Source of the DNA: Methanothrix sp.
GTDB taxonomy: Archaea; Halobacteriota; Methanosarcinia; Methanotrichales; Methanotrichaceae
Assembly: GCA_963682135.1 (NCBI GenBank)
Contig: OY821645.1
Location: 1,536,001-1,600,000 of the forward strand
DNA length: 64,000 bases
Direction: 5' to 3'
How positions within the stretch are numbered: the first letter of the stretch is position 1; each line of letters begins with the position of its first letter. Below are positions 12,193-49,337 of the stretch, piece by piece. The notes under the pieces are model-generated. The model did no database searches and was not told the DNA's origin. It worked only from the letters and a program-made list of their open reading frames with translations. Made by a program: the position numbers and the translations under genes.

Positions 12193-12238
12193 GTCATTGG
12201 CGAAGATTTTTTGATAAAGATAAGCCCACCGGTGAGAT

Positions 12239-26524: not shown

Positions 26525-26763
26525 CCGAGAAGGATGATCGGCTGAATGGGTTGAGGCTTCAAGTGTGTGCAACCTTCATGCTGATGACCCACTTTTTCAA
26601 AGTCCATTAGAAACGCAAAATTTTTCTATTTCCCTCATTTCCCTCTACTGAATAGTGCGATTGCTCTTGCAGCCATTAGAACGAAAACATGGCAGAAGTT
26701 ATTAATGTGCAGAAAATGAAAGTCATAATCTCATAATATTATAAATCATGGGAGCTAATAATA

Positions 26764-27852: not shown

Positions 27853-28031
27853 TTCTTTTGGCTTCTTCGCGTGAGGTTCCTCATTAAATCTCAAGGAGCA
27901 TACCTTTCTAATCTCGGATCTAGCTCTATCATAGATGCTGATGTTGCTTAACTCATTGTCTACTATAGGGGTTCACTCCCACTTATCCCTTATAACAAAT
28001 TACATATATGTGTGGCATACATTAAGATTAT

Positions 28032-28868: not shown

Positions 28869-29084
28869 ACTATACGCCATTGATCTCATGGATGACGCAA
28901 ACGAAGTTGATTGCACTTGATTAGTGCTCCTTATTTGGCCCCTGAATTGACAGGTTTTCATTTTCAACAACTCAGATTGATAGAGCGCCTGCCAAAAATG
29001 AGGATATCATTGCATGAGGTGGCAATAGTTGCTGGGTGCGTGACCACCCAAAAGTTTTTCTATATAGTAAGATGTTGAACATAT

Positions 29085-30563: not shown

Positions 30564-30599
30564 CTGGGATTTAAAAGCTAGTTCCCGTAAGGTAGCCAA

Positions 30600-31664: not shown

Positions 31665-31753
31665 CCGTAAGGTAGCCAACCATAAACTTAAATAGTCAAT
31701 CTCACCACAAGTATATATATTATTAGTTAAGATGGAAGGTATTTGAGGTTATT

Positions 31754-34291
31754 ATGTCCTCGTGGGTTCTTTGCGTGCTATGTGCAGTAGTTCTTTTAGG
31801 GCTTGGATTAGCCGCAGCTTCTACTAACTCCTCTCGGGAAATGATTTTTCCTGATGGCTTTCGTATTAATGTTCCACATCTCGGATCATCCACGGAGAGT
31901 GGCGGCCAAGGTACGGGCGTCGAATATCATGTGGTAACGATAAAAGATCTCAAGGAAATGTTAAACACAAGGATAGAACCAGATAATCCGCTAGTCCATG
32001 ATGAGGCACTCTTGATGGTGGCAAAATTATCATCAGGGCCTCGCGATCCTACTATTAATCAAATATGTTCAATTTATAGCTATTTGAAAAATGGTGACCC
32101 TCCGGTAAAGGGTTGGATTTATGTAAACGACCCAAGAGGCTCAGATTACTTCAATTATGCAAATGAATCCGTGAGAATAGGCGACAAAGCCGGTTGTACC
32201 GGAGATGGTGATTGCGATGATTTTGCTGTTCTGATGGTTTCCCTCGTGGAGTCTATCGGGAAGACGACTAGAATTATTCTGGCTTATGACAACAGCACGG
32301 GAGGACATGCCTATGCAGAGGTCCTTTTAGGAAATTTAAACACTCAGGGCAACCAGGTAAACGATACTTTAGACTGGCTTAAGCAAAAATTCAATACTAA
32401 CAATATTTTCACATATCTTGATACGGATACTGGAGATGTTTGGCTGAACTTGGATTGGGGACCAGATGAATATGGGAATGAGCACCCAGGGGGTCCATTT
32501 TGCCAGGCAGATAAAAAAATAGTTGTCACTGTAGGAGACACGCATAACAAAATCCCCATTGTGATGCCTCCCACCAATACGAATAAAGAAGTATTACAAG
32601 TTCCCGCTGTTCGGTTAAATATCACGACGACCGTGATTGAGAGCGATTCTGCAGAAGTATGGTTCAATAAAGGAGTTGCTCTTGTTGATTTAGGTAAGTA
32701 TGATGAAGCCATAAAGGCTTACGAAAAGGCTATCGAGATCAATCCACAAAATGCAGATGCAAGGAACAACAAAGGCGTTGCTCTCTTTGCTCTAGGCAAG
32801 TACGATGAGGCCATAAACGCATTTGATAAATCCATCGAGATCAATCCACAAAATGCAAATGCATGGAACAACAAAGGTGTTGCTCTCTTTACTCTAGGCA
32901 AGTACGATGAGGCTATAAAAGCATTTGATAAGGCCATCGAGATCAATCCGCAAAATGCAGAAGCTTGGTCCAACAAAGGTGATGCTCTCGATGACAAGGG
33001 CAAGTACGATGAGGCCATAAAAGCATTTGATAAGGCTATCGAGATCAATCCCAATTATTCTTATGCCCGGATCGGCAAGGGATTTGGTCTCAATAATCTG
33101 GGCAAATACGATGAGGCTATAAATGCACTTGATAAGGCTATCGAGATCAATCCAAAATATGCAGATGCATGGATAAACAAAGGTGATGCTCTCAATAATC
33201 TGGGCAAATACGATGAGGCCTTGAAAGCACTTGATAAGGCTATTGAGATTGATCCGCAAGATGTATATGCATCATATGCCTGGAACAACAAAGGTACTAT
33301 TTTTTTTAATCTGGGCAGGCACAATGAGGCAATACAGGCTTACAATAAGTCCATTCAGCTTGATCCCAATTTTGTATATGCCTGGGACAATAAAGGTAAT
33401 GCTCTTGATTATCTGGGCAAATACGATGAGGCCATACAGGCCTACGACAAGGCCACAGAGATCAATCCAAAATATGTAAATGCATGGATAGACAAGGGCA
33501 TTGCTCTCGATAAGCTGGGCAAGCACGATGAGGCCAAAAAAGCATACAATAAGACCGTCGGGATCAATTTGTCGAGATCAGTCTACAACATACCGGAACA
33601 TAGAACAACAACGGCAATGGCCATAAAAACCTCAAATCAATCCATCGAAAGCGATCAAGGGTATGCAAATACCTTGATCGGCATGGGATTTGCTCTTAAT
33701 ATGTTGGGCAAGCACGTTGAAGCCATTCAGGCTTACGATAAGGCTATCGAGATCAATCCAAAATATGCAGATGCTTGGAATAGTAAAGGCGATGCTCTCT
33801 GTTTCCTGTATAGATACAATGACTCAATATATGCCTACGACCAGGCTATTAAGCTGAATTCCTCCAATCCCCTCTACTGGAACAGTAAAGGCGATGCTCT
33901 CTATTTCCTGTATAGATACAACGACTCAATATACGCCTACGATCAGGCTATTAAGCTGAATTCCTCCAATCCCCTTTACTGGAACAATAAAGGCAGTGCT
34001 CTTGATTACCTGTATAGATACAACGACTCAATATACGCCTACGATCAGGCTATTAAGCTGAATTCGTCCAATCCCCTTTACTGGAACAATAAAGGCAGTG
34101 CTCTTGATTACCTATATAGATACAATGACTCAATATACGCCTACGATCAGGCTATTAAGCTGAATTCGTCCACTCCCCTTTACTGGAACAATAAAGGCAA
34201 TGCTCTCAGATTGCTTGGACGCACTGCTGAAGCCTATGCAGCTTTTATTAAAGCACACAGGTTGATCCTAGATAGGTGCCTGACGGGCTGA
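31754..34291 (+). CDS. Secreted transglutaminase-like domain plus long TPR array
   Basis: Signal peptide; GDCDDFA...GHAYAEV...WLNLDW; roughly 15 TPR units. Confidence 0.9.
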   Translation: MSSWVLCVLCAVVLLGLGLAAASTNSSREMIFPDGFRINVPHLGSSTESGGQGTGVEYHVVTIKDLKEMLNTRIEPDNPLVHDEALLMVAKLSSGPRDPTINQICSIYSYLKNGDPPVKGWIYVNDPRGSDYFNYANESVRIGDKAGCTGDGDCDDFAVLMVSLVESIGKTTRIILAYDNSTGGHAYAEVLLGNLNTQGNQVNDTLDWLKQKFNTNNIFTYLDTDTGDVWLNLDWGPDEYGNEHPGGPFCQADKKIVVTVGDTHNKIPIVMPPTNTNKEVLQVPAVRLNITTTVIESDSAEVWFNKGVALVDLGKYDEAIKAYEKAIEINPQNADARNNKGVALFALGKYDEAINAFDKSIEINPQNANAWNNKGVALFTLGKYDEAIKAFDKAIEINPQNAEAWSNKGDALDDKGKYDEAIKAFDKAIEINPNYSYARIGKGFGLNNLGKYDEAINALDKAIEINPKYADAWINKGDALNNLGKYDEALKALDKAIEIDPQDVYASYAWNNKGTIFFNLGRHNEAIQAYNKSIQLDPNFVYAWDNKGNALDYLGKYDEAIQAYDKATEINPKYVNAWIDKGIALDKLGKHDEAKKAYNKTVGINLSRSVYNIPEHRTTTAMAIKTSNQSIESDQGYANTLIGMGFALNMLGKHVEAIQAYDKAIEINPKYADAWNSKGDALCFLYRYNDSIYAYDQAIKLNSSNPLYWNSKGDALYFLYRYNDSIYAYDQAIKLNSSNPLYWNNKGSALDYLYRYNDSIYAYDQAIKLNSSNPLYWNNKGSALDYLYRYNDSIYAYDQAIKLNSSTPLYWNNKGNALRLLGRTAEAYAAFIKAHRLILDRCLTG
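33776..34208 (+). repeat. Near-identical 102-bp tandem repeats (4+ TPR units)
   Basis: Unit starts at 33776, 33878, 33980, 34082 and 34184, encoding WN(S/N)KG(D/S)AL..LYRYNDSIYAYDQAIKLNSS.PLY. Confidence 0.93.
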
Positions 34292-34814
34292 CTGATCAAG
34301 ATTGAAGGGGGGGACATGAACCAGATCTCTTTTACCTATTAGATTTAGGGATTTAGGCAAACATTTATAATCTGTAGAGTCCTGAAAGTATTTCGCACCT
34401 GCTCCGATTTCATTTTGTGTGAAGAATTCATATTTCCTCTTATAGCCCAAACAGCCTGTGGCCAATGGCAAAATACATCTCCAGTCGCATCTTTCGTCTA
34501 AATACCCGTTCTGGGGTTTCGAGATGTTCAAACTCCAGGCTACCATGCGGTCTGTTGTTGTACCATTCCCTAAACTCCTCAAATGAAGAAAAGGCTAATC
34601 TATGTCGTTGATATTCGCCAAACCATCGTTCTGGCTTTCCATTTGTCTGTGGATGTTTAACCCTCGCCAGGATTGGTTTAATGCCATGCTTTTCAAGATG
34701 GTTTTTAAATTCACTGTCCCATTTACCGTCTTCATGAACGCGGTGGGCACCGAATTCTGCACCATGATCCAAGATAAGCTCTCGCATGGGGCAGAGCCAC
34801 CAGTATCCTTCAAC

Positions 34815-36545
34815 CCCAACCTCCCGGATCAAGTAGACACATTAACCGGTCGATCTCAATTATAAAGCTCCTATTTTGAAAAACAACCCTGACTAAGCCC
34901 ACTTAGCGAAAGATATTTATACTATATGCGCCTACTATTATTGAGGCGCATAATGCAAACCACTCGACGAATCAAAGTGAAAAATGGGATCGAATATTGG
35001 TACGAAGAAACACCTTACTATGACAAGGAGAAAAAACAGATCAGACATAAATCAAAATATTTAGGAAGAAACGTAGATGGCCAGCCGGTCCGGATGCGTT
35101 CCGCCCCTGACGAGGTCAAAGAGAAGACGAAAAAGAAAACAGAGGCGATCAAGTCATCATTTGATTATGGCTCCATATTCGTTCTTCAGTCAATTATGGA
35201 AGAGCTTCATATGGATCGCTATCTGGAAGTTTTGTTGTCTCCTTCGGAAGTGTCCATGGTTCGCGCATTGGCATTTAACCGGATTATACGACCTACTGCA
35301 ATGAGGAATGTAGATTCATGGTACGAAGGAACCTCTCTTGCCCTCGAATCTCCGCAAATCAATCTTACCAGTCAGCGAGTAAGTGAGCTTCTCGGTCGAT
35401 TGGGTGAAAGCAATATTCCAGACAGATTCATGTCCCAGCTTATCGAAGGAACCGGTACGAAAGACACACTCATTTACGATATTACGAGCCTGTCAAGTTA
35501 CTCTCAACTCATCAATATTCTTGAGTACGGGTACAATCGTGATGGCGAGTCTCTTCCGCAAATCAATCTGTCCCTGATTCTGGATAAGGATAAAGGGATA
35601 CCCGTGATGTATGACATCTTCCCCGGCAGTATTTCCGATGTCAGTACGCTTTCCGGCACTCTAAAAAAGATAAAAGCGCATGGCATCCAAAATTATGTTG
35701 CTGTGATGGATCGTGGATTTTTCAGCTTGAGCAACCTTCGCGAGCTGATGACGAATAAAATCTCATTTATTATGGCGGCCAGATTGCAGTTGAATGATTT
35801 GAAGCACCTGCTGACGGAAGTGCAAAAGGATCTTGATGATGTAAAATATCTCCACAAGTTTAACAAGGATCCCATTTTTGCCAAACCAATTTCATATATT
35901 ATTGATTCAATTGAAATCAGGGGGTATGTTTATTATGATCCCAAATTAGAGCAAACCGAGAAGCAGACACTCCTAAGCAGACTCTATGATATTCGTGAAG
36001 AGTTGCTCAAGGTGCGCTTGAATAAGAACAGTAACCCCCACGTAGTTTTCAAAGATAAAGCACACGGATTTGGAAACTTCTTCGACTGGAATGTTATGGA
36101 TAATCGCTTTGAAGTTACGATAAAACAAAACGCAGTTGCACAAAGAATGAACAAAATGGGCAAGTATATTATATTCTACTCAGGAAACTTTGACGAGATG
36201 AAGTGCCTTTCTCTCTATCGCGAACGCGATGAAATTGAAAAGAGCTTCAAGGCATTGAAAAGCGAAATTGACATCCTTCCATTGAATACTCATGGCGAAG
36301 AGACAACAAGAGGATTCATTTTTATCGCTTTCCTGAGTCTGATTATAAGGTCACGACTGATAAATATGATGAAGGATGCAGAGATACTAGACAAATATTC
36401 TGTTGAACTTCTTCTGCTGCAATTGGAGAAATTAAGAAAAATTGCTCTTGCAGACGGACAGATAATAGTCACCGAAATGACAAAAAAACAGAGGGAAATT
36501 CTTCAGGCGCTAGACTTGTGCGCCTGAACTTTTCGGGAGGTTGGG
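34815..36545 (+). mobile_element. IS1634-family element, 1731 bp
   Basis: TIRs CCCAACCTCCCG / CGGGAGGTTGGG; 6-bp direct repeat TTCAAC at 34809-34814 and 36546-36551. Confidence 0.9.
34926..36527 (+). CDS. IS1634-family transposase
   Basis: YDITSLSSYS, YGYNRD, PGSISD, MDRGF, YRERDEIEKSFKALK. Confidence 0.9.
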   Translation: MRLLLLRRIMQTTRRIKVKNGIEYWYEETPYYDKEKKQIRHKSKYLGRNVDGQPVRMRSAPDEVKEKTKKKTEAIKSSFDYGSIFVLQSIMEELHMDRYLEVLLSPSEVSMVRALAFNRIIRPTAMRNVDSWYEGTSLALESPQINLTSQRVSELLGRLGESNIPDRFMSQLIEGTGTKDTLIYDITSLSSYSQLINILEYGYNRDGESLPQINLSLILDKDKGIPVMYDIFPGSISDVSTLSGTLKKIKAHGIQNYVAVMDRGFFSLSNLRELMTNKISFIMAARLQLNDLKHLLTEVQKDLDDVKYLHKFNKDPIFAKPISYIIDSIEIRGYVYYDPKLEQTEKQTLLSRLYDIREELLKVRLNKNSNPHVVFKDKAHGFGNFFDWNVMDNRFEVTIKQNAVAQRMNKMGKYIIFYSGNFDEMKCLSLYRERDEIEKSFKALKSEIDILPLNTHGEETTRGFIFIAFLSLIIRSRLINMMKDAEILDKYSVELLLLQLEKLRKIALADGQIIVTEMTKKQREILQALDLCA

Positions 36546-37176
36546 TTCAACCAGTTCGTCAACTACCAATATGCTGTTCTCGGTATTGATATTCCTGAAC
36601 TCACCGCCGGCAAGGATCATCCTGGATGCGTCATCAATGATAACGCAAACCTTGAGATCAGACCAACCTGATTCATGCCAATCGATATGTCCTGCGGACA
36701 GGCTATGCTTGCGTTCGTACCGAACCCACTTGCGTTGCTTTTGTTTTTTCGGATCTTCATGAGCCAGGCCTGCTGCCTTGAGATACATGTGAATACGGTT
36801 ATGAGAGATGCGGACTTTAAACACCTTTCTTACAGCAACCTCCAACATCCGAGCTCCAAATCGATAAAGCCGATACCCATCGCTAATCACTTGTGCCTCT
36901 TGCTCATCAAAAGGCTTCCTGGGCCGCCCATCTTCTCGCCAATCGCAGGCTCTTGCTTGCACTCCACATAGATTTTCCAGATTTGCTGCACTCGCCTCCG
37001 CGATATTTTCATGTCAAGAGCGATCTGCTTTGTGGTCACCCCCTTTTGCTTTTGCCGGATAATCCAATGGATTTTACGCGGATTTGATTTCATAACCCGT
37101 GTTACGGGTGCAGGGGTAAAGCGTGTGCGAAATACTTTCGGGACTACACACAAACATTTATAATCATAAACAAGAA

Positions 37177-38148
37177 ATGAGTGATGAGGAGGAATGTATA
37201 ATCAGAGCGTTTCTTATAATTGTAATCCTGATGTTAGCGGGATCTGCACAGTCAGCTACTTTGTCAGTTTGTCAAGAAGGATGCAACTATACGAGCATTC
37301 AAGCAGCAATTTATGCAGCAAAAATCAATGATACAATTGAGCTGCATAGTGGCACATATAATGATAGTGCAATTTTAACTAAGGAACTAAAATTTATCGG
37401 CAAAGATACAGGTAGTGGGGAACCTGTCGTTGTAGGAGATTTATATACAAATGGTCTTAGGTATTCTCTGAGAGGGTTTGGTTTTAACTCAATTAAATCT
37501 GATATGTCCTCATATTCAGAGACCAATAACTCATTGTACTACTGGATGGGAAAGGCAAGAGATTATTATTCAGCTGAATCTTATGCCAAGGCTCTAGATG
37601 CTATTTCCAAAGCACTAAAAATAGATCCTCAAAATGCAGTGGCTTGGAATCGAAAGGGCATATACTTGGCTGCTCAACACAGAGACGAAGAGGCTACAGA
37701 ATGCTATGATAATGCCCTTAAGATAGACTCATCATACAGCCCAGCGTTGTATAACAAAGGAGGTCAATTATATAACCAAGAAGAATACGAAAACGCTATC
37801 TTTTATTATGATCAAGCGATCAATGCAGACCCGAGAGATATAGAATACCTATCCTCAAAGGCCTCTGCATTAATGAAGATGGCCAAATTTGATGATGCTC
37901 TTAAGACGATTGAAAAAGCTATTGAGATACAACCACAAAGTACTGATTATTTGAACCGAAAGATCGCTATTCTATTTTCCTGGGGCAAATATGAAGATGC
38001 TCTTACTGCGATCGATAAATCCTTAGATTTGAATCCATCACAAATTGAGATCTGGCAAATGAAAGGTACTATTCTTCAGAAAATTGGCCGCAACAAAGAA
38101 GCCGATATGGCTTTCGCCAAGGCCAAGGAGCTGAGTTATACAGGATAA
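37177..38148 (+). CDS. Secreted protein: short NosD-like N-terminus plus TPR repeats
   Basis: Signal peptide; CNYTSIQAAI...SGTY; TPRs; ends AFAKAKELSYTG. Start uncertain. Confidence 0.85.
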   Translation: MSDEEECIIRAFLIIVILMLAGSAQSATLSVCQEGCNYTSIQAAIYAAKINDTIELHSGTYNDSAILTKELKFIGKDTGSGEPVVVGDLYTNGLRYSLRGFGFNSIKSDMSSYSETNNSLYYWMGKARDYYSAESYAKALDAISKALKIDPQNAVAWNRKGIYLAAQHRDEEATECYDNALKIDSSYSPALYNKGGQLYNQEEYENAIFYYDQAINADPRDIEYLSSKASALMKMAKFDDALKTIEKAIEIQPQSTDYLNRKIAILFSWGKYEDALTAIDKSLDLNPSQIEIWQMKGTILQKIGRNKEADMAFAKAKELSYTG

Positions 38149-38240
38149 CTCCAGATCGAGTTAAATGCGTAACCTGTACTCTATCAACCTTTTTTGTATT
38201 TCTAACATTATATGACATTAATATGACATAATATTGATTT

Positions 38241-38338
38241 CTTCATGGAGAGATTGCCGAGCAGGCGGAGGAGACCTTGGCGGCCATGGAAAAACGGCCC
38301 AGTCAGCCTGCTCCTGGCTGGCAGCGTGCCCAGGGGCC
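38241..38338 (+). pseudogene. Decayed moeA 5' fragment
   Basis: CATGGAGAGATTGCCGAGCAGGCGGAGGAGACCTTGGCGGCC...CTGGCTGGCAGCGTGCCCAGGGG aligns to 45712-45809 and to moeA 47722-47819. Confidence 0.85.
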
Positions 38339-38358
38339 TTCTAAAATTATGTCCTGAT

Positions 38359-39171
38359 CTATTGAGTCCGGTTCTGCTTCCTGAGAGCCTCTTTCTTGGC
38401 ATCCTCAGCCCTCTCGAAATCGGGCTTAATCCCCAGGGCTCTATCATAGCAGACCAGCGCCTCATCATATCTGCCCAGTCTTGAAAGTGCATCGCCTTTC
38501 CCATACCAGGCCATGAAGTTTGATTGATTGCGAGCTATTACCTTGTCATAAAACGGCAGTGACTCGTTGTACAGGCCCATGCTCTGTGAGACGCCCGCGC
38601 TCTCCAGGTCGCGCAGATCCTGCGTGGCCGCTCCCTGTGGGCTGTTGTCCGGAACAGAGCCGATAAAAAGCAGACCGATCATGACCATAAGCAGCACTCC
38701 CGTAAAGAGGAGGCTATAGAGGACACGGCCCAGGAAGCGCCTCCTGCTATTATCACTATTGAGAAGAGGAAGTGCGGAGGTGATTTTATCCGGCCCGGCA
38801 AGGGATATGACCCCTGCTGCTGTCAGCAAAACCCCAGGGATGATCCAGCCTGTCCAGCCCATACTTGCATAAGATCCTGAGGCATAGCCAACTGGAAATC
38901 CGAGCAGCCCACATAAAATTATCACCCCGCCCAAATTCACCTTTTTCATGGGATAGAGCAAAGAGGATATGCCGCCCATTATGCCCAGCAGGATAAAGAC
39001 ACTGGCTCCTATCTCTGGTGAGATGAAGTTTCCTTCTATCCAGCTCCCTGGCATGTGTGAGGAGGCTGCAGAAACAATAAACCATAAAAGCTCAGCACCG
39101 CCAATAAGGATGCCAAAGAGTCCCCCAATAACGCCTGGGATGGTCACAATTGCTTTCACGATGAAAATCAA
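38359..39171 (-). CDS. Multi-pass membrane protein with C-terminal TPR
   Basis: About 5 hydrophobic helices; AWYGKGDALSRLGRYDEALVCYDRAL. Confidence 0.85.
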   Translation of the reverse strand: MIFIVKAIVTIPGVIGGLFGILIGGAELLWFIVSAASSHMPGSWIEGNFISPEIGASVFILLGIMGGISSLLYPMKKVNLGGVIILCGLLGFPVGYASGSYASMGWTGWIIPGVLLTAAGVISLAGPDKITSALPLLNSDNSRRRFLGRVLYSLLFTGVLLMVMIGLLFIGSVPDNSPQGAATQDLRDLESAGVSQSMGLYNESLPFYDKVIARNQSNFMAWYGKGDALSRLGRYDEALVCYDRALGIKPDFERAEDAKKEALRKQNRTQ

Positions 39172-39332
39172 CTCTCTGCTTCTCAGATTCGGTCCATATC
39201 AACGCACGGTTAGATGCTTTCGCCAAAGCTATATTGAGTCACTTTTCATAGATTTAGTTTTTGATTGTAGCAACGTACTTGCGAGGTAGCGTGCTACAAT
39301 TGCGACTTGGCTAGGCGGCTGCGGGGGCAGCT

Positions 39333-39389
39333 GCCCTGGTGATGGCCGATCACTTTATCCGCCAGAGAGCGGCGAAGCTGCAAATTTAA
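39333..39389 (+). pseudogene. aroC 3'-end relic
   Basis: GCCCTGGTGATGGCCGATCACTTTATCCGCCAGAGAGCGGCGAAGCTGCAAATTTAA = ALVMADHFIRQRAAKLQI*; matches aroC 27802-27852 and 45921-45977. Confidence 0.85.
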
Positions 39390-39409
39390 TTGTACATCCC
39401 TCATCGGTA

Positions 39410-39482
39410 TTTCACGTCTTTGCGCATTGGCGTGAAAATGTGTCGCGTCTCAACGCGAAGACGCGAAGGGCGCGAAGAAGAC
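39410..39482. repeat. REP-like palindrome cluster
   Basis: TTTCACGTCTTTGCGCATTGGCGTGAAA followed by CGCGAAG x3. Confidence 0.6.
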
Positions 39483-39555
39483 AACCATGATCACTCGCAT
39501 TTAGGTGAAGACCAAAACGCCAACCAAATATTGCATCACGATTGCGATCAAGCTT

Positions 39556-39641
39556 CAATAAAAAGCTCAGGCCATCGCTTGTGTTATATCATAATATGAG
39601 AGAAGGTAATCCGGGCCTTACCTTTGGCCCTTGCCATCTGA
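39556..39641 (+). pseudogene. Internally deleted PemK/MazF toxin relic
   Basis: AATAAAAAGCTCAGGCCATCGCTTGTGTTATATCA matches 46212-46246 and is joined directly to a match of 46460-46499. Confidence 0.85.
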
Positions 39642-39869
39642 TCTGCCCGGACGGTGGCCACTGGCGGGCGCTCGGGCCCCGGAGAAGAGGACCCAGCAAA
39701 GATGTCTGGCCTGAGGTCAAGGCCGGGTGCGATGAAAGCGCCCTCTGCTGGGTCTTGCGGCTGCTCGTCCCTACGCTCCCTCGGGATTTCTGGCGGCATC
39801 CGCTCCTGCAGCCGGGTGTCATGCACTTGCGAAGGTTCTGCCCCCCGGAGGCCCGTAAATGGATCTATG
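39641..39869. ncRNA. Candidate structured non-coding element, copy A
   Basis: Diverged duplicate of 46499-46719 with non-triplet indels, an identical 30-nt core at 39715-39744 and compatible stems (folded by eye). Confidence 0.45.
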
Positions 39870-39912
39870 AAGTTCAAATACATTCATGGCGGTTTAACCA
39901 TATCGCAATCAT

Positions 39913-40836
39913 TCACAGGGAGTAGATTCCTGCTCCCAACCACCAGGTATCATCCACCTTCGTGACATAGCTAAGCTTGAATCCTGGCGTCATGTTTCTT
40001 GCGGGATCTGGATAGATATAGTAAGTGAATCCACCTCCGCTTTTGGCCAGAGCTATCATATCTCGATTGAGTTTAACGCCATTAGGATCCTCAATATCAA
40101 TCCTGTTCTTGCCAATTAAGTCTGGCTGAGTAGGAAGCGCCAGGGCGTTACCAGCGAAGTCAAAGGCGAACACATAAAGACTTTCCTTGAAGAACGTACC
40201 ATTCTTGTCATTGAATGCCTTCAATGCCTTATCTTTCCCATTATCTTTGCAATATTTGACTGCCCCCTCGACGAAATTTGTGAGATTATTCCTAGACTCC
40301 GGACTGAAGTTCGCAGACATGTTGGACAGATAGATTCCAGAGGCCAGCCACCAGGTATCATCCACCTTTTCGACGTAAGTCAACTTCAGCTCCTGCTTAT
40401 TATTATGGGCAGGATTGGCAAAAACGTAATAGGCATACCCGTTACCTCTCTTTGCTACAGAAACCAGGTTCTTTTTATATTCAATTCCATTGGCATCCTT
40501 CAGATCCAGAAGGCTCTTGCCGACGAAATCCGGTCGGTAGGGGTTGGCAAGACCGATGGCATTGAAATCTTCGGCAAAAATATAGCGCTCACCCTTAATG
40601 AACTCTGCCGACTTGTTATTATTAAACTCTTTAATGGCAGTCTCCTTTCCATTAGCTTTGGCATAGGCGACAGCATTATCCACAAATGCAATAAGGTCTG
40701 CATGAGATATGTCAGTAGATGCCGCCGATACACTCGCAATTGAGTTGTTATTCCCTGGAGCGGCCTCGGCACAGATGCCGGGAGAAATCACCACTCCCAG
40801 GAAAAATATAATTACAAAGATGTTAAGCAATTTCAT
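39913..40836 (-). CDS. Secreted tandem Cache (sCache_2-like) domain protein
   Basis: Signal peptide; two repeats of FV..AV.Y.K.NGK..A.K.FN...YIFA.DF...LA.P..PD..GK..D..D.NG...KL.YV.KVDDTWWL..GIY; no TM anchor or output domain. Confidence 0.88.
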   Translation of the reverse strand: MKLLNIFVIIFFLGVVISPGICAEAAPGNNNSIASVSAASTDISHADLIAFVDNAVAYAKANGKETAIKEFNNNKSAEFIKGERYIFAEDFNAIGLANPYRPDFVGKSLLDLKDANGIEYKKNLVSVAKRGNGYAYYVFANPAHNNKQELKLTYVEKVDDTWWLASGIYLSNMSANFSPESRNNLTNFVEGAVKYCKDNGKDKALKAFNDKNGTFFKESLYVFAFDFAGNALALPTQPDLIGKNRIDIEDPNGVKLNRDMIALAKSGGGFTYYIYPDPARNMTPGFKLSYVTKVDDTWWLGAGIYSL

Positions 40837-40987
40837 AAAGGTAATGCTTATCTATTAGATATAAATTTTATGATACCGACCAATGCTTTGACGCGACCCC
40901 AGGTTGACGTGAATTTGATCCCAAAATAATTACAGTAATATATTTATAAAACTTTGGCATAAATATGTGATCTGGAACAAATGGAGG

Positions 40988-41311
40988 TCAAAAAATCCTC
41001 TCAGCCAGCCAGAAGAGTATCATCCCGGAAATTACGGTTCCACCAAGCGATTTTGTCTTGAGTGCAATGAGAAACGTGGGAATTGCCACCAGCGATTTGG
41101 TCTGCAGCACATCCAGATGGCGCGGGCTGCCGGAAAGAAAGATCTCCGAGAATACCAGGGCGCTAAGAATCGCCACCGGGATCATGTCCAGCCACTCGAT
41201 GAACCAGCGTGGGAGATCTCTATGGGCCAGAAAGAATAGCGGAAGGTAGCGCGGAATGTAGGTAACCAGCCCCATGCCGACTATCAACAGGAGGTATTCC
41301 GTCTTAAGCAT
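40988..41311 (-). CDS. azlD: AzlD-family membrane protein
   Basis: GMGLVTYIPRYLP...WL..IPVAILSALV; overlaps the azlC stop. Confidence 0.88.
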   Translation of the reverse strand: MLKTEYLLLIVGMGLVTYIPRYLPLFFLAHRDLPRWFIEWLDMIPVAILSALVFSEIFLSGSPRHLDVLQTKSLVAIPTFLIALKTKSLGGTVISGMILFWLAERIF

Positions 41312-42005
41312 GCAATCCTCTATTTCTTTGAGCATACCTCTTAAGCCCAAATCCTGCGGTTGCGCCTAAGAGCGAAGCCATGATAACAAAGCCGTTTCCG
41401 GGAACGATAAGTGAGATGCCGACGGCCGCGGCTCCGGATATGATGGCCGTCAAGAAATAAATCCGTCCTCTGAGCTGAATTGTCAGCAGGCAAAGGAACA
41501 TGGCGCTCAGCGCATAATCAATTCCGTAGCTGCCTGCAAGAATAAACTGCCCGGTATAGCCGCCGAGAATTGTGCTCCCGATCCAGGCGAAATTGGATAA
41601 TTGGTTGACCATCAGGGCCTGGTAGCGATGCCATCCTCCTGCTCTAAATTTGACCAGATTCACTGCGAAGCTCTCGTCAGTGACGCCGTAAGCGAAGACT
41701 GATAGAAATCTTCTGCTCACCCCGTGCAAATAGACTGCCAGGGACGAGCTCATAAGCAGGTGCCTCAGATTCACAACGAATGTCGTCAGAATAATGGATA
41801 AGGGCAGAGCGCCGCTGCTCAGCATGGCCACGGCAATGAACTGAGAGCTTCCGGCATACACCAATATCGACATGAGGGCAATATCGAGTAAATCCAACCC
41901 CGCCTTCTGAGCCAGGACTCCGAAGGCAAAGCCGAGAGGAAGGTAGCCTACGCATATGGGCCATGCGGCTTTTATGCTCTGCAGGGCAAAGCCGAATTGA
42001 TTCAC
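41304..42005 (-). CDS. azlC: AzlC-family branched-chain amino acid exporter
   Basis: PICVGYLPLGFAFG, MS.LVYAGSSQF, VNLRHLL, VTDESFA; GTG start at 42005 preferred. Confidence 0.92.
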   Translation of the reverse strand: MNQFGFALQSIKAAWPICVGYLPLGFAFGVLAQKAGLDLLDIALMSILVYAGSSQFIAVAMLSSGALPLSIILTTFVVNLRHLLMSSSLAVYLHGVSRRFLSVFAYGVTDESFAVNLVKFRAGGWHRYQALMVNQLSNFAWIGSTILGGYTGQFILAGSYGIDYALSAMFLCLLTIQLRGRIYFLTAIISGAAAVGISLIVPGNGFVIMASLLGATAGFGLKRYAQRNRGLHA

Positions 42006-42206
42006 AAAGAGCCTCTTATCCGGGATGAGATATCCTTTTCGTCCCCCGATTGCTCGGGCCCGCGGGGCAGGGACCCGAGAAGATGAATGGGCCAAAGAGG
42101 GAAACGGATTCACTTCCCACCCCCATAAGCTTAACATATAATAAAGAATAATACAGAATATGGAGGGATTAAAATAACTAAGAGCACCAACAAAGCTCTG
42201 CTGATA

Positions 42207-42842
42207 ATGTTATTTACATCGATAATTTTGCCTTTATTCCTGTCTGTTGAAGCCGAACCGGGTATTTGTCCGAATTATTATGGTCCGTATGCGCAAAACC
42301 CCATTGGACAATCGGAGTACTGCGAAATTATGATACTCCCTGGAGTCTATGATATACAGTGGGCTCATGGTCCAGAGAGCAATTGGGATTGGCAGCATTG
42401 GGACCAATTGGATATGACGGAAAATAATAGATATGTGCTGACCTATGACTTCAATGGAAAGCTATCAATTGAAGAATATGAGGATTCGAGCTTAACCGGA
42501 TATACATTGATTTGCGGTAAAAACAATGGACCAGATGAACTCGTTTTCTGCCTTAAGCCTGCATCCCAGGAGGCTAGTAAAACAAAGAATGAATTGGTCA
42601 TGGGCTATGAAATAACAGGATATAAAGTATATTTAGATGGAAATTATGTTGGAACGGATGGAGAAAATGGCGATGCGCTTGATGGTAATTTCAAAGTCCA
42701 TGGTATTCCATGTTTGGGAAATCATTCAATCGTAGTCGATGATGGAGATCTCACTCATACCCTGGATTTTTACTTTGGCTGTGGTGAATCGTATTCAATT
42801 AACGTGGGCGATCCCCTCTTTGTATTGGAGAAATCTCAATGA
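42207..42842 (+). CDS. Secreted hypothetical protein with C-terminal PEGA-like domain
   Basis: Signal peptide; KVYLDGNYVGT..G.H.IVV. Confidence 0.7.
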   Translation: MLFTSIILPLFLSVEAEPGICPNYYGPYAQNPIGQSEYCEIMILPGVYDIQWAHGPESNWDWQHWDQLDMTENNRYVLTYDFNGKLSIEEYEDSSLTGYTLICGKNNGPDELVFCLKPASQEASKTKNELVMGYEITGYKVYLDGNYVGTDGENGDALDGNFKVHGIPCLGNHSIVVDDGDLTHTLDFYFGCGESYSINVGDPLFVLEKSQ

Positions 42843-45127
42843 GAATTGACTTAATAATAGCTATCGTCTTTGTCCTGATCAGTCTCGGAACTTGGTCTGC
42901 TATCGCACAAGATTCATCCAAAGGCGTCTGGGTGCTTACAGAAATAGGCAATTTCGAGGGCAATATCGACCAACCGAATCCGTTATCCACAAGGTATATC
43001 GAGCCATGTGGTACATTACGACCTAATCTAACAGCTTCCGGGACGACAGTTACTGGCAAAAATAGACGTTGTGCGAATTGCGATTGCTCCGAAAAAAGTG
43101 ATTGTGTATATTACCTTTACACTACCAGTAGTTGGACTCCTTTGCCCTCCAGATTAAAACCTGGGGACCAGCTCAAAATAACATTGACTTCAGAAGTACG
43201 TGTCGATAAGGAATGTGGTTTCAATAATGCCTGGTTCGCGGAGGTATCGGCGTCATATTGGACCGAAGATCAATTTCATAATGTCAATTCCAACAGCATT
43301 GGAAGAATCCTTTGCAGATTACCAGGAAGAGTTGGAGAGGGACCTTTTGTATTGTCGAATCAATCCACAGGAGCATTTACATATATGGTGCCTGATGGCC
43401 GCTCGGATGGGCAGAAGCTAGCTCTTATGTTCGAGGGAGCCGACTCTGTTCTCGGAAGGGCTAAAAAGAATTATTGGTATACCTATTCTCAGGGGCAAGA
43501 AGCCTCTGCGCCAGCGTCCAAGCTCCCTGATGAGGTAGATGAAAACCATTCGCCCACAGTGATCCTCTCCTATTCCCCCAGCAATCCCACGGAACGGGAT
43601 TTAATAGAGTTCACTGCCGAGGCTAGCGATCCGGATGGTGATGAACTGACCGATAGCTGGTTCATTGACGATGAAGAGCAAGCAGATACTGGTTCGACCA
43701 TGAGCACAACTCTTTCTCCTGGCGATCACACAGTCATTGTGAAGGTATCCGATGGAAAAGGAGGTACCGATGAAGACCACTTACATCTGACGGTGACCCT
43801 CTCATCGGGCATCACCGGCAATGTCATCGAGGCAGTTTTATTGCTGCCCATAACTGATGCGACAGTGACTGTGGAAAACTCCGAGGGAAACATCATACGC
43901 CGGGTATCCGTAGATGGGGACGGGAAATACTCCGTCCTTCTGCCGCCTGGCACCTACCGGGTCTGGGCCTCTGCGCCGGGCTATCTGCCTTCCACGGGGA
44001 TGTCCGGGGAGCATGTGGAGGTTGAACCGGGGATACTTGAAGAGGATGTCAACTTCCGATTGGTGATGGAGCCTACCAATGGAGGAAAAACCTCCGGTGC
44101 AGAACCTATTTTGAGCGGTGGAGCAAGCGGGTCGGAGTTTGGCACAAAGAGCTTCGAATTTGCTGCCTGGGGAACGTACAGGTTTGCAGATATCTCTGGC
44201 AAGAGGTATTTCGCAGCATATCTGGTGAATACCACTCAAGAAATGTTGGATGCAGGCGAATCTGCGCCTTATCTCTGGCTAAAATCCGACAATTGGGATC
44301 TGCTGAAAAATGGGCAGCTCAGCGAGGTTCTGATCGATAATCGCAAAGAAGTGGTCATAACATCCAATAATCCTCTCAAACTGAAAGATGGCTATGAACT
44401 GGCCATTAAGTCCATCGACATCGAGGGAATAAAAGTCTACCTCGAATTGTCCAAGGACGATGCTGTAGTAGACAGCAAGGTCATATCGCCGTTAGAGGCA
44501 GGAGCTACCATGGCTGACAGGACCTACTACTACAAGTCGGATGTAGGGCGGGCAAAGAAAATGGTGCAGATAGCTGTTTACTTCAAGAACACCTTTAAGG
44601 GTATCGATCAGGACCTAGCCAACATCGGAGGAGTGTTCCAGATATCCGAATCGCCTCTGGATAGTGCAACTACGCAAACGGGAGCAGCCAGCATCTCAGG
44701 TCCTAATACAGCAATTGACTGGGTCAGCAAAGGCAATGCTTTCAGGAAACAGGGCAAGCACGACGAGGCCATCAAGGCTTATGATGAAGCCATCAGGTTA
44801 GATCCCAATGACGCAGATGCCTGGTACAACAAAGGCGAGGCTCTCAATTACATGGGCGAAAGCAAGTACGACGAGGCCATCAAAGCTTATGATGAAGCCA
44901 TAAGGCTCGATCCACAGTTAGCTGAAGCTTGGTTTTGGAAAGGCAATCTTCTCAATGCCCAGGGCAAGCACGACGAGGCTCTCGAGGCTTATGATGAAGC
45001 CATAAGGCTCGATCCCAATGACGCAGATGCCTGGGTCGGCAAAGGCGTTGCCCTCAACGCAGTTGGAGATAATACCGAAGCAGAGAACGCCTTCGCCAAG
45101 GCTTTAGAGCTGGGGTATACTGGCTGA
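42839..45127 (+). CDS. Mosaic surface protein: Cys-rich N-terminus, PKD/Ig-like, carboxypeptidase-regulatory-like, S-layer (DUF1608-like) and TPR domains
   Basis: ASDPDGDEL...VSDGKGG; DGDGKYSVLLPPGTYRV.ASAPGY; YFAAY...LSEVLID...LKDGYELAIKSIDIEG.KVYLELSKD..VVDSKVI; TPRs; ends AFAKALELGYTG. Confidence 0.88.
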   Translation: MRIDLIIAIVFVLISLGTWSAIAQDSSKGVWVLTEIGNFEGNIDQPNPLSTRYIEPCGTLRPNLTASGTTVTGKNRRCANCDCSEKSDCVYYLYTTSSWTPLPSRLKPGDQLKITLTSEVRVDKECGFNNAWFAEVSASYWTEDQFHNVNSNSIGRILCRLPGRVGEGPFVLSNQSTGAFTYMVPDGRSDGQKLALMFEGADSVLGRAKKNYWYTYSQGQEASAPASKLPDEVDENHSPTVILSYSPSNPTERDLIEFTAEASDPDGDELTDSWFIDDEEQADTGSTMSTTLSPGDHTVIVKVSDGKGGTDEDHLHLTVTLSSGITGNVIEAVLLLPITDATVTVENSEGNIIRRVSVDGDGKYSVLLPPGTYRVWASAPGYLPSTGMSGEHVEVEPGILEEDVNFRLVMEPTNGGKTSGAEPILSGGASGSEFGTKSFEFAAWGTYRFADISGKRYFAAYLVNTTQEMLDAGESAPYLWLKSDNWDLLKNGQLSEVLIDNRKEVVITSNNPLKLKDGYELAIKSIDIEGIKVYLELSKDDAVVDSKVISPLEAGATMADRTYYYKSDVGRAKKMVQIAVYFKNTFKGIDQDLANIGGVFQISESPLDSATTQTGAASISGPNTAIDWVSKGNAFRKQGKHDEAIKAYDEAIRLDPNDADAWYNKGEALNYMGESKYDEAIKAYDEAIRLDPQLAEAWFWKGNLLNAQGKHDEALEAYDEAIRLDPNDADAWVGKGVALNAVGDNTEAENAFAKALELGYTG

Positions 45128-45443
45128 TCCAGGCTCTGTGTGTAACCTGTATTCTCTCTCTTTCTTTTTCGATATGTATTAACCCACAGAATATTATTAT
45201 AATGAGGCGTCCGATCTCAAACCCTCTTCTGATGGTGCGCCCCAGTTTATAGATACAGCGGTTTTCTATTCCCAATGATGGCGAAAATCCGGAATCACAA
45301 TCGTCGAAGATCCATTCCATAGGGTAATGGGATTAGGCAGTTAGACCAAAGCCAAATTTTAGCCGATTAGTTGGGTTTGTATGCGCCGCTATGAACAACA
45401 TGCATGTTCTGGGCGTGCGCCCTCAATTAGTTCTCTTCTCCTC

Positions 45444-45977
45444 ATATCCTGCAAACTTCGTTCCTTCTCGTGAACCGTGATCACTCGCGAAGCCTTGACT
45501 GGCGCGAAGAGCCTTTGATATCTTCTTGTGCCCAAAATACCTCTCATGCGTAAGGAGTTTCGTAGCCTCATCTCGCTGGAAGAAGCCCTATCGATAGTTC
45601 AAAGCCGCCTTCCCCTGACTAGCGTTGAGACCGTCCCGCTGCCGCTGGCCCAGGGCCGCATCCTGGCCGAGAAGATCGTCTCCTCTCTGGATGTGCCGGG
45701 ATTTGCTCGCGCCTCCATGGACGGCTTTGCCGTGCAGGCGGAAGACACCCTGGAGGCCAGGGAAGACCGGCCCGTCTGCCTGCGCCTGGCCGGCAGCGTG
45801 CCCATGGGCGCGCTCCCCCACGTGCGCGTGGCCCAGGGCGAGGCGGCGGAGGTCGCGATAAAAGGACAGGCACGACCCGGCAATTGCGCCCCGAATTGTG
45901 CCCGTGGGCGAGGTATGGTGGCCCTGGTGCTGGCCGATCACCTGCTGCGCCATAGAGCGGCAAGAATGCAAATTTAA
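45444..45977 (+). pseudogene. moeA-5'::aroC-3' chimera including the moeA upstream region (ORF 45528-45977)
   Basis: 45444-45851 is homologous to 47463-47861; 45831-45960 is homologous to aroC 27712-27840; joined at GCCCAGGGCGAGGCGGCGGAG. Confidence 0.93.
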
Positions 45978-46003
45978 ATAGAATAAGCTATGAGATAATA
46001 TCC

Positions 46004-46156
46004 ATGTGTGAGATCTTGGAGCGTAAAGATCGAAAGCTGAGCCGTCTCTATGAGTCTGACGCAGACAAGACCGACGAGGAGATTGTCGAGGGCCTGATGG
46101 AGATAACTGCCCTTTCTCTTGCAGATTTGCTAGCAGATGAGCCCGCCTATGAATGA
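46004..46156 (+). CDS. Putative antitoxin (50 aa, acidic)
   Basis: Manual translation MCEILERK...SLADLLADEPAYE; overlaps the toxin start. Confidence 0.6.
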   Translation: MCEILERKDRKLSRLYESDADKTDEEIVEGLMEITALSLADLLADEPAYE

Positions 46157-46499
46157 GGAACTGAAAAAAGGCGACATCATCTTAGCACCTCTTTCTTATT
46201 CCGATTTGGTCAATAAAAAGCTCAGACCATCGCTTGTGTTATATCATGATATGAGCGTAATGCAACTCACAGTCGCATACATATCAAGCAAGGTTCCCGC
46301 CGAAGCAGGACCTTATGACATTGTTATTCCCACAGGCACACCCATGGGCACCAAGGCAGGTCTGATCTACCCTTCTGTGGTTAAGGTCTGTTGGATCGCG
46401 ATGGTTAAGAGAATCCTGGTAAAAAGAAAGTTAGGCGAAGCCGATGAAGATCTCAGAGCAAAGGTAAACTGGGTCTTACCTCCTGCCCTTGTCATCTGA
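46149..46499 (+). CDS. PemK/MazF-family toxin
   Basis: KGDIILAPLSYSDLVNKKLRPSLVL...VAYISS...GL.YPSVVK. Confidence 0.88.
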   Translation: MNEELKKGDIILAPLSYSDLVNKKLRPSLVLYHDMSVMQLTVAYISSKVPAEAGPYDIVIPTGTPMGTKAGLIYPSVVKVCWIAMVKRILVKRKLGEADEDLRAKVNWVLPPALVI

Positions 46500-46719
46500 T
46501 CTGCCCGGACGGTGGCGGGCCGTTGGGCCTCGCAGGGCATGGGACCTGGCGAAGATGCACGGGTCTGGGGTCAAGGCCGGGTGCGATGAAAGCGCCCTGG
46601 GGGATCTTGCGCCGTCTCGTCCCAACGACCTATCAGGATTGCGGGCAGCATCGGCGAGCGCCGCCGGGTGGTTCGCTCTTGGGGAAGGACGGCCCCCCCC
46701 GGAGGCTTGGATATCTATG
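46499..46719. ncRNA. Candidate structured non-coding element, copy B
   Basis: See copy A; identical core GGTCAAGGCCGGGTGCGATGAAAGCGCCCT at 46569-46598. Confidence 0.45.
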
Positions 46720-47421: not shown

Positions 47422-47546
47422 TTCGGTCTTAGTTCCCGTTAATCTATATAGAATCTATACTAATATCCTGCAAACTTCGCGCCTTTCCGTGACCCGACCC
47501 CGTTGATGAATCTGCGAAGAGCCTTTTATATCTACTCGCGCCCAAA

Positions 47547-49337
47547 ATGCCTCTCATGCGTAAGGAGTTTCGTAGCCTCATCTCGCTGGAAGAAGCCCAA
47601 TCGATAGTTCTTAGCCGCCTTCCCCTGACTAGCGTGGAGACAGTCCCGCTGCCGCAGGCCCAGGGCCGCATCCTGGCCGAGAAGATCGTCTCCTCTTTGG
47701 ACGTGCCGGGATTCGCCCGCGCCTCCATGGACGGCTTTGCCGTGCAGTCTGATGACACTTTGGCAGCCAGGGAGGACCGGCCTGTCTGCCTGCGCCTGGC
47801 CGGCAGCGTGCCCATGGGCGTGCTCCCGCGCGTGCGCGTGGCCCAGGGCGAAGCGGCGGAGGTGTCCACCGGCTCCATGATGCCGCCGGGCGCGCAGGCA
47901 GTGGTCATGATTGAATACAGCCAGGCCGAAGGGGATCAGGTTCTGATCAGAAGGCCCGTCTACGGCGGCGAGAATGTGCAGGCGGCAGGAAGCGACATCT
48001 CTTTTGGCGAAGCTGTGCTCTTTCCCGGCACAAAGCTTGCAGCGCGCGAGATGGGGGTTTTGGCTGCCCTTGGCCGAACGAAAATGCCAGTGCGCTGCCT
48101 CAAGGTTGGCCTGGCCTCTACCGGCAATGAGCTGGTGGCGCCCGGCGGGACTCTGGCTGCGGGCCAAATATACGACATCAACACCTACACCATCGCTGCG
48201 GCTGTAACCGACTGCGGTGCGCAGGCCGTCCCCTACGGCATCCTGCCGGACGAAAAGAGATCAATGGCAGCATTGCTGCAAAAGATGGCCGAAGAGTGCA
48301 ACATGATTCTGGTGAGCGGCAGCACCTCAGCAGGCGTCGGAGACATGATCTTTCAGGTCTTAGAGGAAGTAGGCGAGCTGATATTTCACGGCGTGAACCT
48401 CAAGCCAGGCAAGCCCACCATCTTCGGCCAGATCAATGGCAAGCCCTGCCTGGGTCTGCCCGGCTATCCCACCAGTGCTCTGACCGTCTTCTCCTGCCTG
48501 GCAGCTCCTGCCATTCGTGCCGCTTTGGGCCAGAAGCATTCCCGAAAGAGAGTGACGGGACGGCTGGCCGGACCGCTGCGATTCGATGGTCGCCGCCAGG
48601 TGCTGGCCGTGGGCCTCTCGAACAGGTTGGTCTATCCCGTGGACAAGGGAAGCGGCTCTATCACCACTCTGGCCGGAGCGGATGGCATTATCGACATCCC
48701 TGTGGGAGTTGAGTATCTGGAGAAGGGTGAGAATGTAGAGGTGGAGCTATTTGGTGAGATGATGCCAGCCGACCTTGTGGTGGCGGGTGAAAACGCTCTC
48801 CTCCTGGAGCAGTTGGCAGAAAGGGCGTCCGGGCGTATCTTGCTATTGAATAGCGGCTCGGTGCGAGCCAGGCTCTACCTGGAGGACGGCGTGGCTGACC
48901 TGGCCTGCATCTCTGGTCCGCAAGCGATGCCGCCGGAAACGGTCGCGAAAGGCATGTCGTTGATCGGGAGTTTTAAAAGAGAGCTGGGCCTGGTCTTCCG
49001 GGATGCGAGCGCTTTGTCGAACCTTGCCGACCAACGCATCGTGGGCTGGCAGCGGGACTCTGCCATGCATGGCGCATTTGAGAGACATCTGTTGGCTTTA
49101 GGACTGACTCATCCCAGCTACGTGCGAGCGGCCAGGACCCATTCGGCTGTGGCTGCGGCGGTCGCCTCCGGACGGGCGGATGTGGGATTTGCGGAAAAGC
49201 GAGCTGCTGCGGATGCGTCTTTAGGTTTCCGGCTACTGGAACAAGACGAGATTAGGCTGCTGACCAGGCAGGAGAATGTCGATGACGACCGGCTCAAGTC
49301 CCTGGTTCTGGCGATTTCTCAGGCAGGAGGGGCTTGA
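47547..49337 (+). CDS. moeA: Molybdopterin molybdenumtransferase MoeA with C-terminal PBP-like domain
   Basis: ASMDGFAV, STGNEL, SGSTSAG, KPGKP, GLPGYPTS; C-terminal THSAVAAAVASGRADVG. Confidence 0.95.
   Translation: MPLMRKEFRSLISLEEAQSIVLSRLPLTSVETVPLPQAQGRILAEKIVSSLDVPGFARASMDGFAVQSDDTLAAREDRPVCLRLAGSVPMGVLPRVRVAQGEAAEVSTGSMMPPGAQAVVMIEYSQAEGDQVLIRRPVYGGENVQAAGSDISFGEAVLFPGTKLAAREMGVLAALGRTKMPVRCLKVGLASTGNELVAPGGTLAAGQIYDINTYTIAAAVTDCGAQAVPYGILPDEKRSMAALLQKMAEECNMILVSGSTSAGVGDMIFQVLEEVGELIFHGVNLKPGKPTIFGQINGKPCLGLPGYPTSALTVFSCLAAPAIRAALGQKHSRKRVTGRLAGPLRFDGRRQVLAVGLSNRLVYPVDKGSGSITTLAGADGIIDIPVGVEYLEKGENVEVELFGEMMPADLVVAGENALLLEQLAERASGRILLLNSGSVRARLYLEDGVADLACISGPQAMPPETVAKGMSLIGSFKRELGLVFRDASALSNLADQRIVGWQRDSAMHGAFERHLLALGLTHPSYVRAARTHSAVAAAVASGRADVGFAEKRAAADASLGFRLLEQDEIRLLTRQENVDDDRLKSLVLAISQAGGA

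Follow-up and report, generated by a model that had tools for sequence, protein, structure and literature searches.

A conserved non-coding element of Methanothrix next to variable accessory gene regions

Two element copies in an aroC–moeA array

The region analyzed here, referred to as the window, is a stretch of 64,000 nucleotides from the genome of a Methanothrix sp. (single contig of 3.04 Mb, 50% GC; positions preceded by C1 are those of the contig, all others those of the window or, where stated, of another contig). Genes detected in the window by Pfam search include those encoding PCNA, the primase large subunit and an S-layer protein. It also contains two copies of a non-coding segment of ~180–210 bp, hereafter called EL, both located on the + strand: copy A at 39641..39869, with the core defined by the family profile at 39680–39843 (nhmmer E 6.6e-37), and copy B at 46499..46719, with the core at 46527–46694 (E 1.5e-34). 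The copies share 72–73% identity, and the GC content, calculated in 200-nt windows, peaks at 0.65 over copy A and at 0.705 over copy B, compared to 0.50 for the genome. Within the best-conserved part of the EL family, a 30-nt block on the + strand (39715–39744 and 46569–46598) is identical in both copies; it has two matches in the window, while 0.00 are expected based on 100 shuffles. The indels separating A from B are not multiples of three. An initial annotation, made from the letters of this DNA, had already pointed out the two co-oriented GC-rich copies, their identical core and the non-triplet indels, and the alignment bears it out on all three.

Copy B begins at the end of a PemK/MazF-like toxin gene (46137..46499, + strand; PF02452, E 2.8e-9, 37.6 bits versus a cut-off of 23.1), whose TGA stop sits within the CTGATC motif forming the 5' end of the copy. 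The start of this gene is overlapped by a 55-aa ORF (45989..46153, + strand), a candidate antitoxin solely by its position, for which Pfam and NCBIfam searches gave no match. Upstream of copy A, the comparison of repeats within the window revealed two remnants of the PemK gene (39555..39640, + strand): 39555–39600 is 96% like 46210–46255, and 39598–39640 represents the 3' end of the gene, with ~200 nt deleted. Both copies had been described as starting at the PemK stop, with the toxin gene lost at copy A, and this is correct in the sense that B starts at the stop of the intact gene and A follows the remnants. Further upstream of copy A (39440..39500, + strand), short repeats of the CGCGAAG type are followed by CCATGATC, and the same module is found upstream of many other EL copies; at L068 (1880–1940) and L019, iteron-like GAGTCTAGAC repeats take the place of the CGCGAAG-type repeats.

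The two copies lie among displaced pieces of aroC and moeA, whose intact genes are located at 26764–27852 and 47547–49337, respectively. An aroC 3'-end fragment at 39327..39383 (+ strand; 74% like 27796–27852) opens unit 2 of this array and is preceded by a moeA 5' piece at 38288–38337. A second aroC 3'-end fragment at 45831..45977 (+ strand; 86–89% like 27712–27852) opens unit 3, and the 5' end of moeA has been duplicated together with its upstream region at 45504..45803 (+ strand; 92% like 47514–47813). A chimeric ORF of 149 aa (45528–45977, + strand) fuses MoeA_N, as recognized by Pfam, to the aroC tail. Overall, the 3' end of aroC and the 5' part of moeA each occur three times in the array, forming joints between a moeA 5' part and an aroC 3' part; the third unit is absent from the relative G094. 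Judging from the arrangement of these pieces, the array looks like the outcome of repeated single-crossover entry of a circle carrying such a moeA 5'/aroC 3' joint. The suggested tie between EL and the aroC–moeA array stands, as one case of recombination joints.

Unit 1 of the array also harbors two insertion-sequence transposase genes (30618–31607, rve integrase core; 34926–36527, DDE_Tnp_1), over both of which contig depth was raised in four runs, as expected of multi-copy elements. A segment of ~430 nt is duplicated at 28213–28639 and 31899–32328 (81–87% identical), the duplicates preceding a transglutaminase-like gene and a large TPR gene, and TPR genes with internal repeats of 102 nt occupy much of 29085–34291.

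Range, descent and conservation of the EL family

Using copy B as BLAST query, we obtained matches in 27/100 other genomes of the family, of which 25 belong to the 54 genomes of the same genus and two are weak matches in other genera; copies per genome are lower bounds in this search, with matches listed up to seven. Another copy used as query matched 21/53 Methanothrix genomes, 0/46 genomes from other genera of the family and 0/101 genomes from five other families of the class. Judged by these searches, EL is specific to Methanothrix. An iterated nhmmer profile identified 48 copies in 50 loci (L009–L058), and further copies emerged when loci from MAGs and metagenomes were added (84 profile hits, 71 distinct rows). 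Phage and plasmid collections gave no EL match, and at the level of literature listings no such repeat is described for Methanothrix or Methanosaeta. The view of the initial annotation that the family is an unrecognized one holds.

Three strong copies are present in the window's own genome, while relatives carry up to at least seven among the matches listed. The third copy, a short form missed by BLAST, lies downstream of topA on the - strand (C1:1185994–1186098), and the topA locus as a whole (C1:1185738–1186098, - strand) combines this short-form EL with a full AT-rich box module, a promoter-like block described below. The same order of topA, EL and box recurs in at least five other Methanothrix genomes. 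Weak EL remnants and a partial box module at C1:118814–124697 and 120391–120597 suggest another, decayed junction locus in the same genome.

Sequence conservation was assessed at the AcnX locus, where the first 100 EL columns are 88% identical across seven species. This is comparable to the AcnX coding sequence (~80–95% identical), whereas identity drops to 18–20% in the adjoining spacer and to ~25% past the TATA-like box of the box module. In a FastTree phylogeny of the 48 copies, AcnX-type, topA-type and 130-aa-ORF-type copies each formed their own group, and EL copies clustered by locus rather than by genome. Copy A is sister to its syntenic copy in G094 and copy B to its G094 orthologue, so that the split between A and B must be older than those two species. 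Array neighbors are sister copies in this tree.

What kind of sequence is conserved in this way was addressed at the level of RNA, DNA and protein. The initial annotation read EL as a multi-branch non-coding RNA or ribozyme linked to a toxin-antitoxin pair, or else as a folded single-stranded DNA site. Some features do point in this direction: EL is GC-rich in a genome of 50% GC, many stems can be drawn in each copy, and a hairpin with a GAUGAAA loop (helices 7 and 8) is kept in ~83% of cells. The Rfam covariance models, however, gave zero matches at gathering thresholds across the whole window, and only chance-level hits over both copies up to E 10. Fold energies were like those of dinucleotide shuffles, both for RNA (z-scores of -0.42 and +0.40 for the + strand, -0.33 and +1.08 for the - strand) and for DNA (-0.90, +0.62, +0.19 and +0.83); a folded DNA site is not supported either. 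For the consensus fold we used the 35/48 copies reaching profile position 170 or beyond, dropping 13 short forms; RNAalifold predicted three pairs with -0.21 kcal/mol for these 35 sequences. The structure conservation index amounted to 0.00–0.14 on both strands in the profile alignment, for the whole element as well as for sub-blocks, and to 0.00–0.065 with 71 distinct copies, while mean pair probabilities, averaged over 27 full-length copies, did not exceed 0.33 and 0.35 for the + and the - strand, respectively.

The six stems proposed in the initial annotation (30 pairs, 828 cells) were scored on the same number of family members (35). Each window copy indeed folds into similar stems, but not beyond chance: the stems were paired in 72.6% of cells versus 71.7% in shuffles (reached by 52/500 shuffles), the covariation score of the 30 pairs was 0.127 versus 0.118 (reached by 55/500), and 8 pairs had changed on both sides versus 10.4 expected from shuffles. 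High pairing relative to slid partners follows from sequence conservation when a structure derives from one member of the alignment. Most copies, moreover, have no toxin-antitoxin neighbor, and the proposed PemK linkage is not general, with other copies adjoining AcnX, topA, moeA, DUF790, DUF1016 or a 130-aa ORF. Since the lack of covariation in a larger alignment had been named beforehand as the outcome that speaks against it, the structured-RNA reading is refuted and we regard it as very improbable; a status as candidate ribozyme or riboswitch-like RNA does not hold up. EL is conserved in sequence, not in fold.

Similarly, a decayed fragment of a protein-coding gene appears extremely improbable. 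In a set of 29 copies, the three frames of the + strand are open 21, 20 and 11 times, and open frames span both window copies, as a gene relic would predict. Against this, column variability by codon position (0.74, 0.72 and 0.65) lacks a triplet period, indels of one nucleotide are found in every combination, and the frame common to copies A and B is limited to the core. Pfam assigned no family, and the 127-aa ORF over copy A found one match (69 aa) from 15 candidates in the 'near' length class among 5.77 billion proteins. The check for a decayed gene revealed neither codon periodicity nor a kept frame nor, for one frame of copy A searched in the 'near' length class, protein relatives.

Architecture and recombination signatures

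Across the family, EL occupies a fixed place: a conserved anchor gene is followed by EL (5' to 3'), often by an AT-rich block, and then by variable cargo. In 24 loci examined, the gene on the 5' side was AcnX (divergent) in 8 and topA in 3 cases, others being moeA, the shikimate dehydrogenase gene and DUF790, a nuclease family whose gene adjoins that of the XPB helicase. The 5' end of EL is a YTGATC motif in ~22/48 copies. Mean GC is 0.54 upstream, 0.64 in EL and 0.42 downstream; the high value of EL may reflect GC-biased gene conversion, as would be expected if the site recombines. Half of the copies (24/48) carry, within 400 nt of their 3' end and on the same strand, the box module, an AT-rich segment of ~260 nt that contains a TTCCATA..TATGGAA dyad and ends in a TATA-like box of the TTTATAAAA type (GTATTTATAAAAATAT). 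Cross-species homology ends directly after this box. Copies A and B have no box module beside them and face convergent genes; a partial module is located in the window at 45192..45344 (C1:1581192–1581344) on the - strand (nhmmer E 1.4e-11). A subset of copies is preceded by a further conserved extension of ~200 nt containing GGGTTCGACGGCTGGGCTGATTCAATGG.

The cargo comprises TPR and HEAT proteins, GmrSD, Schlafen/AlbA_2, Mrr, ParE, PIN, UPF0150, RHH and NERD. Wherever at least two EL copies occurred within 10 kb, all pointed in one direction (9/9 contigs: the window, G094:C190, G087:C75, G092:C1, G080:C39, G051:C13, G057:C65, L072 and one metagenome contig), with a spacing of 0.8–7 kb and commonly several genes per cassette. 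Several unrelated ORFs, namely PemK, the 130-aa ORF, DUF1016 and DUF790, terminate no more than 3 nt away from the EL 5' end. The idea that the TGA within the 5' motif consistently serves as a genuine stop codon was dropped: it does so for PemK, DUF1016 and the 130-aa ORF, but in AcnX- and topA-type copies it ends only short or antisense frames. The flanks are mosaic, as these unrelated 5' partners are joined to the same middle part, which in turn has two kinds of 3' continuation. Homology breaks off on the left at about -24, +26 to +33 and +47, and on the right at +111, +150, +165–172 and +180. A run of at least four T within 25 nt past the 3' end was present in 12/29 long copies, and an A/T 8-mer within 70 nt upstream in 0/17 copies with the 5' motif.

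The ORF of ~130 aa (L058:66–461, G080:C39 and relatives), often located directly upstream of EL, has a coiled-coil N-terminal half and, in its C-terminal half, a sub-threshold match to an Arm-DNA-binding domain (E 0.0065, 17 bits versus a cut-off of 27). Its family comprises 1575 matches, the best 120 of which measure 126–160 aa, and in four viral contigs a homologue lies 2–3 kb downstream of the large-terminase gene without EL. An SSV-type split integrase involving this ORF was rejected, as the ORF has its own double stop before EL and the four viral homologues are not followed by EL. Neither did the search for an IS200/IS605 left end or PATE, prompted by the TTGATC start, yield a match at any EL copy; the window's own genome has 12 TnpB and 7 TnpA matches, none of them at EL copies, and the 20-nt EL start is found in this genome, at up to one mismatch, only in the two window copies. 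EL thus bears no resemblance to the ends of the IS200/IS605 elements of this genome. A tRNA or tmRNA gene as integration target was discarded as well, since ARAGORN predicted no such gene in the window or in 32 loci.

Inserts next to EL are bracketed by long direct repeats. In G092, a cargo of 2.9 kb is enclosed by two copies of a segment of ~670 nt that contains EL (95.8% identity). The IMG/VR contig L076, from a tailed provirus, carries genes for terminase, portal and a UDG-XkdF protease, followed by iteron-like repeats and a low-GC block of 4.9 kb that begins with EL and further comprises the box module, an unassigned ORF and a HEAT-repeat protein. This block is flanked by duplicates of the protease 3' end (7168–7602 and 12075–12606 of the contig, 70–80% identical), and here the flanking duplication does not contain EL. 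Neither an excised circle nor an empty site was observed; contigs of four runs mapped to 26500–46400 gave only paralogous placements and loose ends from other EL copies, with no informative joint among them. The tyrosine recombinase domain PF00589 was found within 40 kb of 0/30 EL matches listed for five genomes, most of whose assemblies are fragmented, and in the window's own genome the nearest PF00589 match is 52 kb away from copy B and contains two stops. Among proteins without Pfam match, none common to the cassettes was found.

A putative junction module and its relation to known systems

Taken together, we tentatively favor, at slightly less than an even balance, the reading of EL as part of a DNA-level junction module at which recombination adds accessory cassettes and replaces them by others. 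That the arrays arise by recombination in or next to EL is our inference, and so is the mechanism proposed in the following. EL would be the constant left part of the module, which would also separate successive accessory cassettes in co-oriented arrays, and could act either as a portable stretch of homology or as the site of a putative recombinase. Circular or foreign DNA with accessory genes would be added by single crossover, and later be lost or swapped. Copies A and B are old paralogues belonging to two consecutive units of a tandem accretion, in which an aroC 3' fragment is followed by the antitoxin and PemK genes (where retained), EL, cargo and a moeA 5' fragment. With regard to the type of recombination, the scattered breakpoints and the long flanking duplications favor homologous recombination, while the clustering of three left junctions at +26 to +33 favors a site-specific enzyme. 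Several observations weigh against a junction module: no recombinase is linked to the copies examined, the breakpoints spread without a single crossover point, the 70–90% likeness of the copies is low for efficient homologous recombination, and the two copies in the window stand without a box module, opposite convergent genes. Furthermore, the tree indicates mostly vertical, locus-bound inheritance, so that the conservation may stem from a different function, be it regulatory or that of a sequence-dependent RNA.

Such a function would make EL a cis-regulatory DNA platform (protein-binding or insulator) or an unstructured transcript (3' UTR or sequence-dependent sRNA), whose conservation would reflect this role and whose presence in variable regions would be incidental. 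Coding-like conservation beside unalignable spacers, locus-bound inheritance, the fixed order with a promoter-like block, T runs after the 3' end that resemble an archaeal terminator and the position of several copies directly 3' of a same-strand ORF all agree with it. Yet EL appears to have no shared promoter, judging from the missing upstream A/T 8-mer in motif-bearing copies; the rest of the genome contains no long stretch complementary to it, its context is inconsistent (downstream of topA, DUF790 and PemK, divergent from AcnX and moeA), and truncated and mosaic copies are numerous, leaving this explanation unlikely. Rather unlikely is also an att-like site of a recombinase encoded elsewhere, integron- or CALIN-like and read as double-stranded sequence. 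It would account for the uniform direction of arrays in all nine contigs, the unrelated ORFs stopping at the EL 5' end, the three clustered left junctions, a common middle part of ~80 nt with differing flanks and a cargo of toxin-antitoxin and nuclease genes typical of chromosomal cassette arrays. It is at odds with the absence of a tyrosine recombinase near any of the copies examined, of a protein common to the cassettes and of a hairpin, with breakpoints that do not fall at one position, and with the TGA of the 5' motif, which usually ends only short, spurious frames. Finally, EL might be a neutral relic of an extinct or unsampled plasmid or virus, kept by recent copying or gene conversion. 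One copy does lie inside a provirus contig beside iteron-like repeats, and copies are modular and often truncated; nevertheless, the AcnX and topA loci have retained orthologous copies in at least 6–8 species, conserved to a degree similar to that of coding sequence, and phage and plasmid collections are free of matches, so that we consider a relic quite improbable.

Going beyond the junction module itself, EL could mark an integrase-less or putative-recombinase cassette system, that is, a hairpin-free archaeal functional counterpart of integrons with a sequence-conserved junction module of 0.4–0.6 kb formed by EL and the AT-rich block; we rate this extension as unlikely. In such a system, cassettes for defense, toxin-antitoxin and surface proteins would be anchored beside housekeeping genes, and circles might pop in and out. 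Among the methanogens of digesters and wetlands, Methanothrix is one of the major consumers of acetate, and to our knowledge it is poorly known how it acquires defense and accessory genes. A conserved joint specific to this genus would offer a handle for locating variable islands in the many fragmentary Methanothrix genomes from metagenomes, and EL would allow testing whether recombination can stack genes in archaea in the absence of a dedicated integrase.

In comparison to established mobile and repeat elements, EL resembles REP/BIME, ERIC, Correia and other MITEs in being short, non-coding, multi-copy, modular and intergenic. In contrast to these families, it has no palindrome or hairpin. 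Nor is EL MITE-like, as had been considered in the initial annotation: terminal inverted repeats and target duplications were not seen (the ends of the window copies show a weak mutual likeness by eye, which is not convincing as inverted repeats), neighboring copies are all direct and none inverted, and the copies are few, 70–90% alike and clustered by locus, with no cognate transposase found. The att repeats that bound tandem genomic islands at the 3' end of tRNA or protein genes, as well as Campbell-type insertion of circular DNA by a single crossover, have a counterpart in stacked units bounded by diverged copies of target ends (aroC, moeA, protease). EL differs from them in that it copies no gene end found, recurs at many loci and has no integrase next to it, and in that the duplicated segments reach 430–670 nt at 70–96% identity.

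Both parallels and differences exist to the attC sites of integrons and to CALINs, clusters of attC sites without an integrase. CALINs are defined by co-oriented attC sites less than 4 kb apart (PMC9668308), and a search for the terms Methanosaeta, Methanotrich* and Methanosarcin* in the main text of this paper on archaeal integrons found none of them. EL does not form an imperfect-palindrome hairpin (z near 0) or a shared helix, no IntI or other tyrosine recombinase is encoded near the copies examined, and EL units tend to bring their own promoter block. At 180–210 nt it also differs in length from attC sites, which measure ~55–141 nt. Like attC sites in CALINs, on the other hand, EL repeats are co-oriented and separate small accessory blocks with many toxin-antitoxin pairs, the 5' end of EL coincides with the stop of the ORF before it or lies close by, and the array lies beside a fixed platform, a likeness that extends to the long uniform repeats of chromosomal super-integrons.
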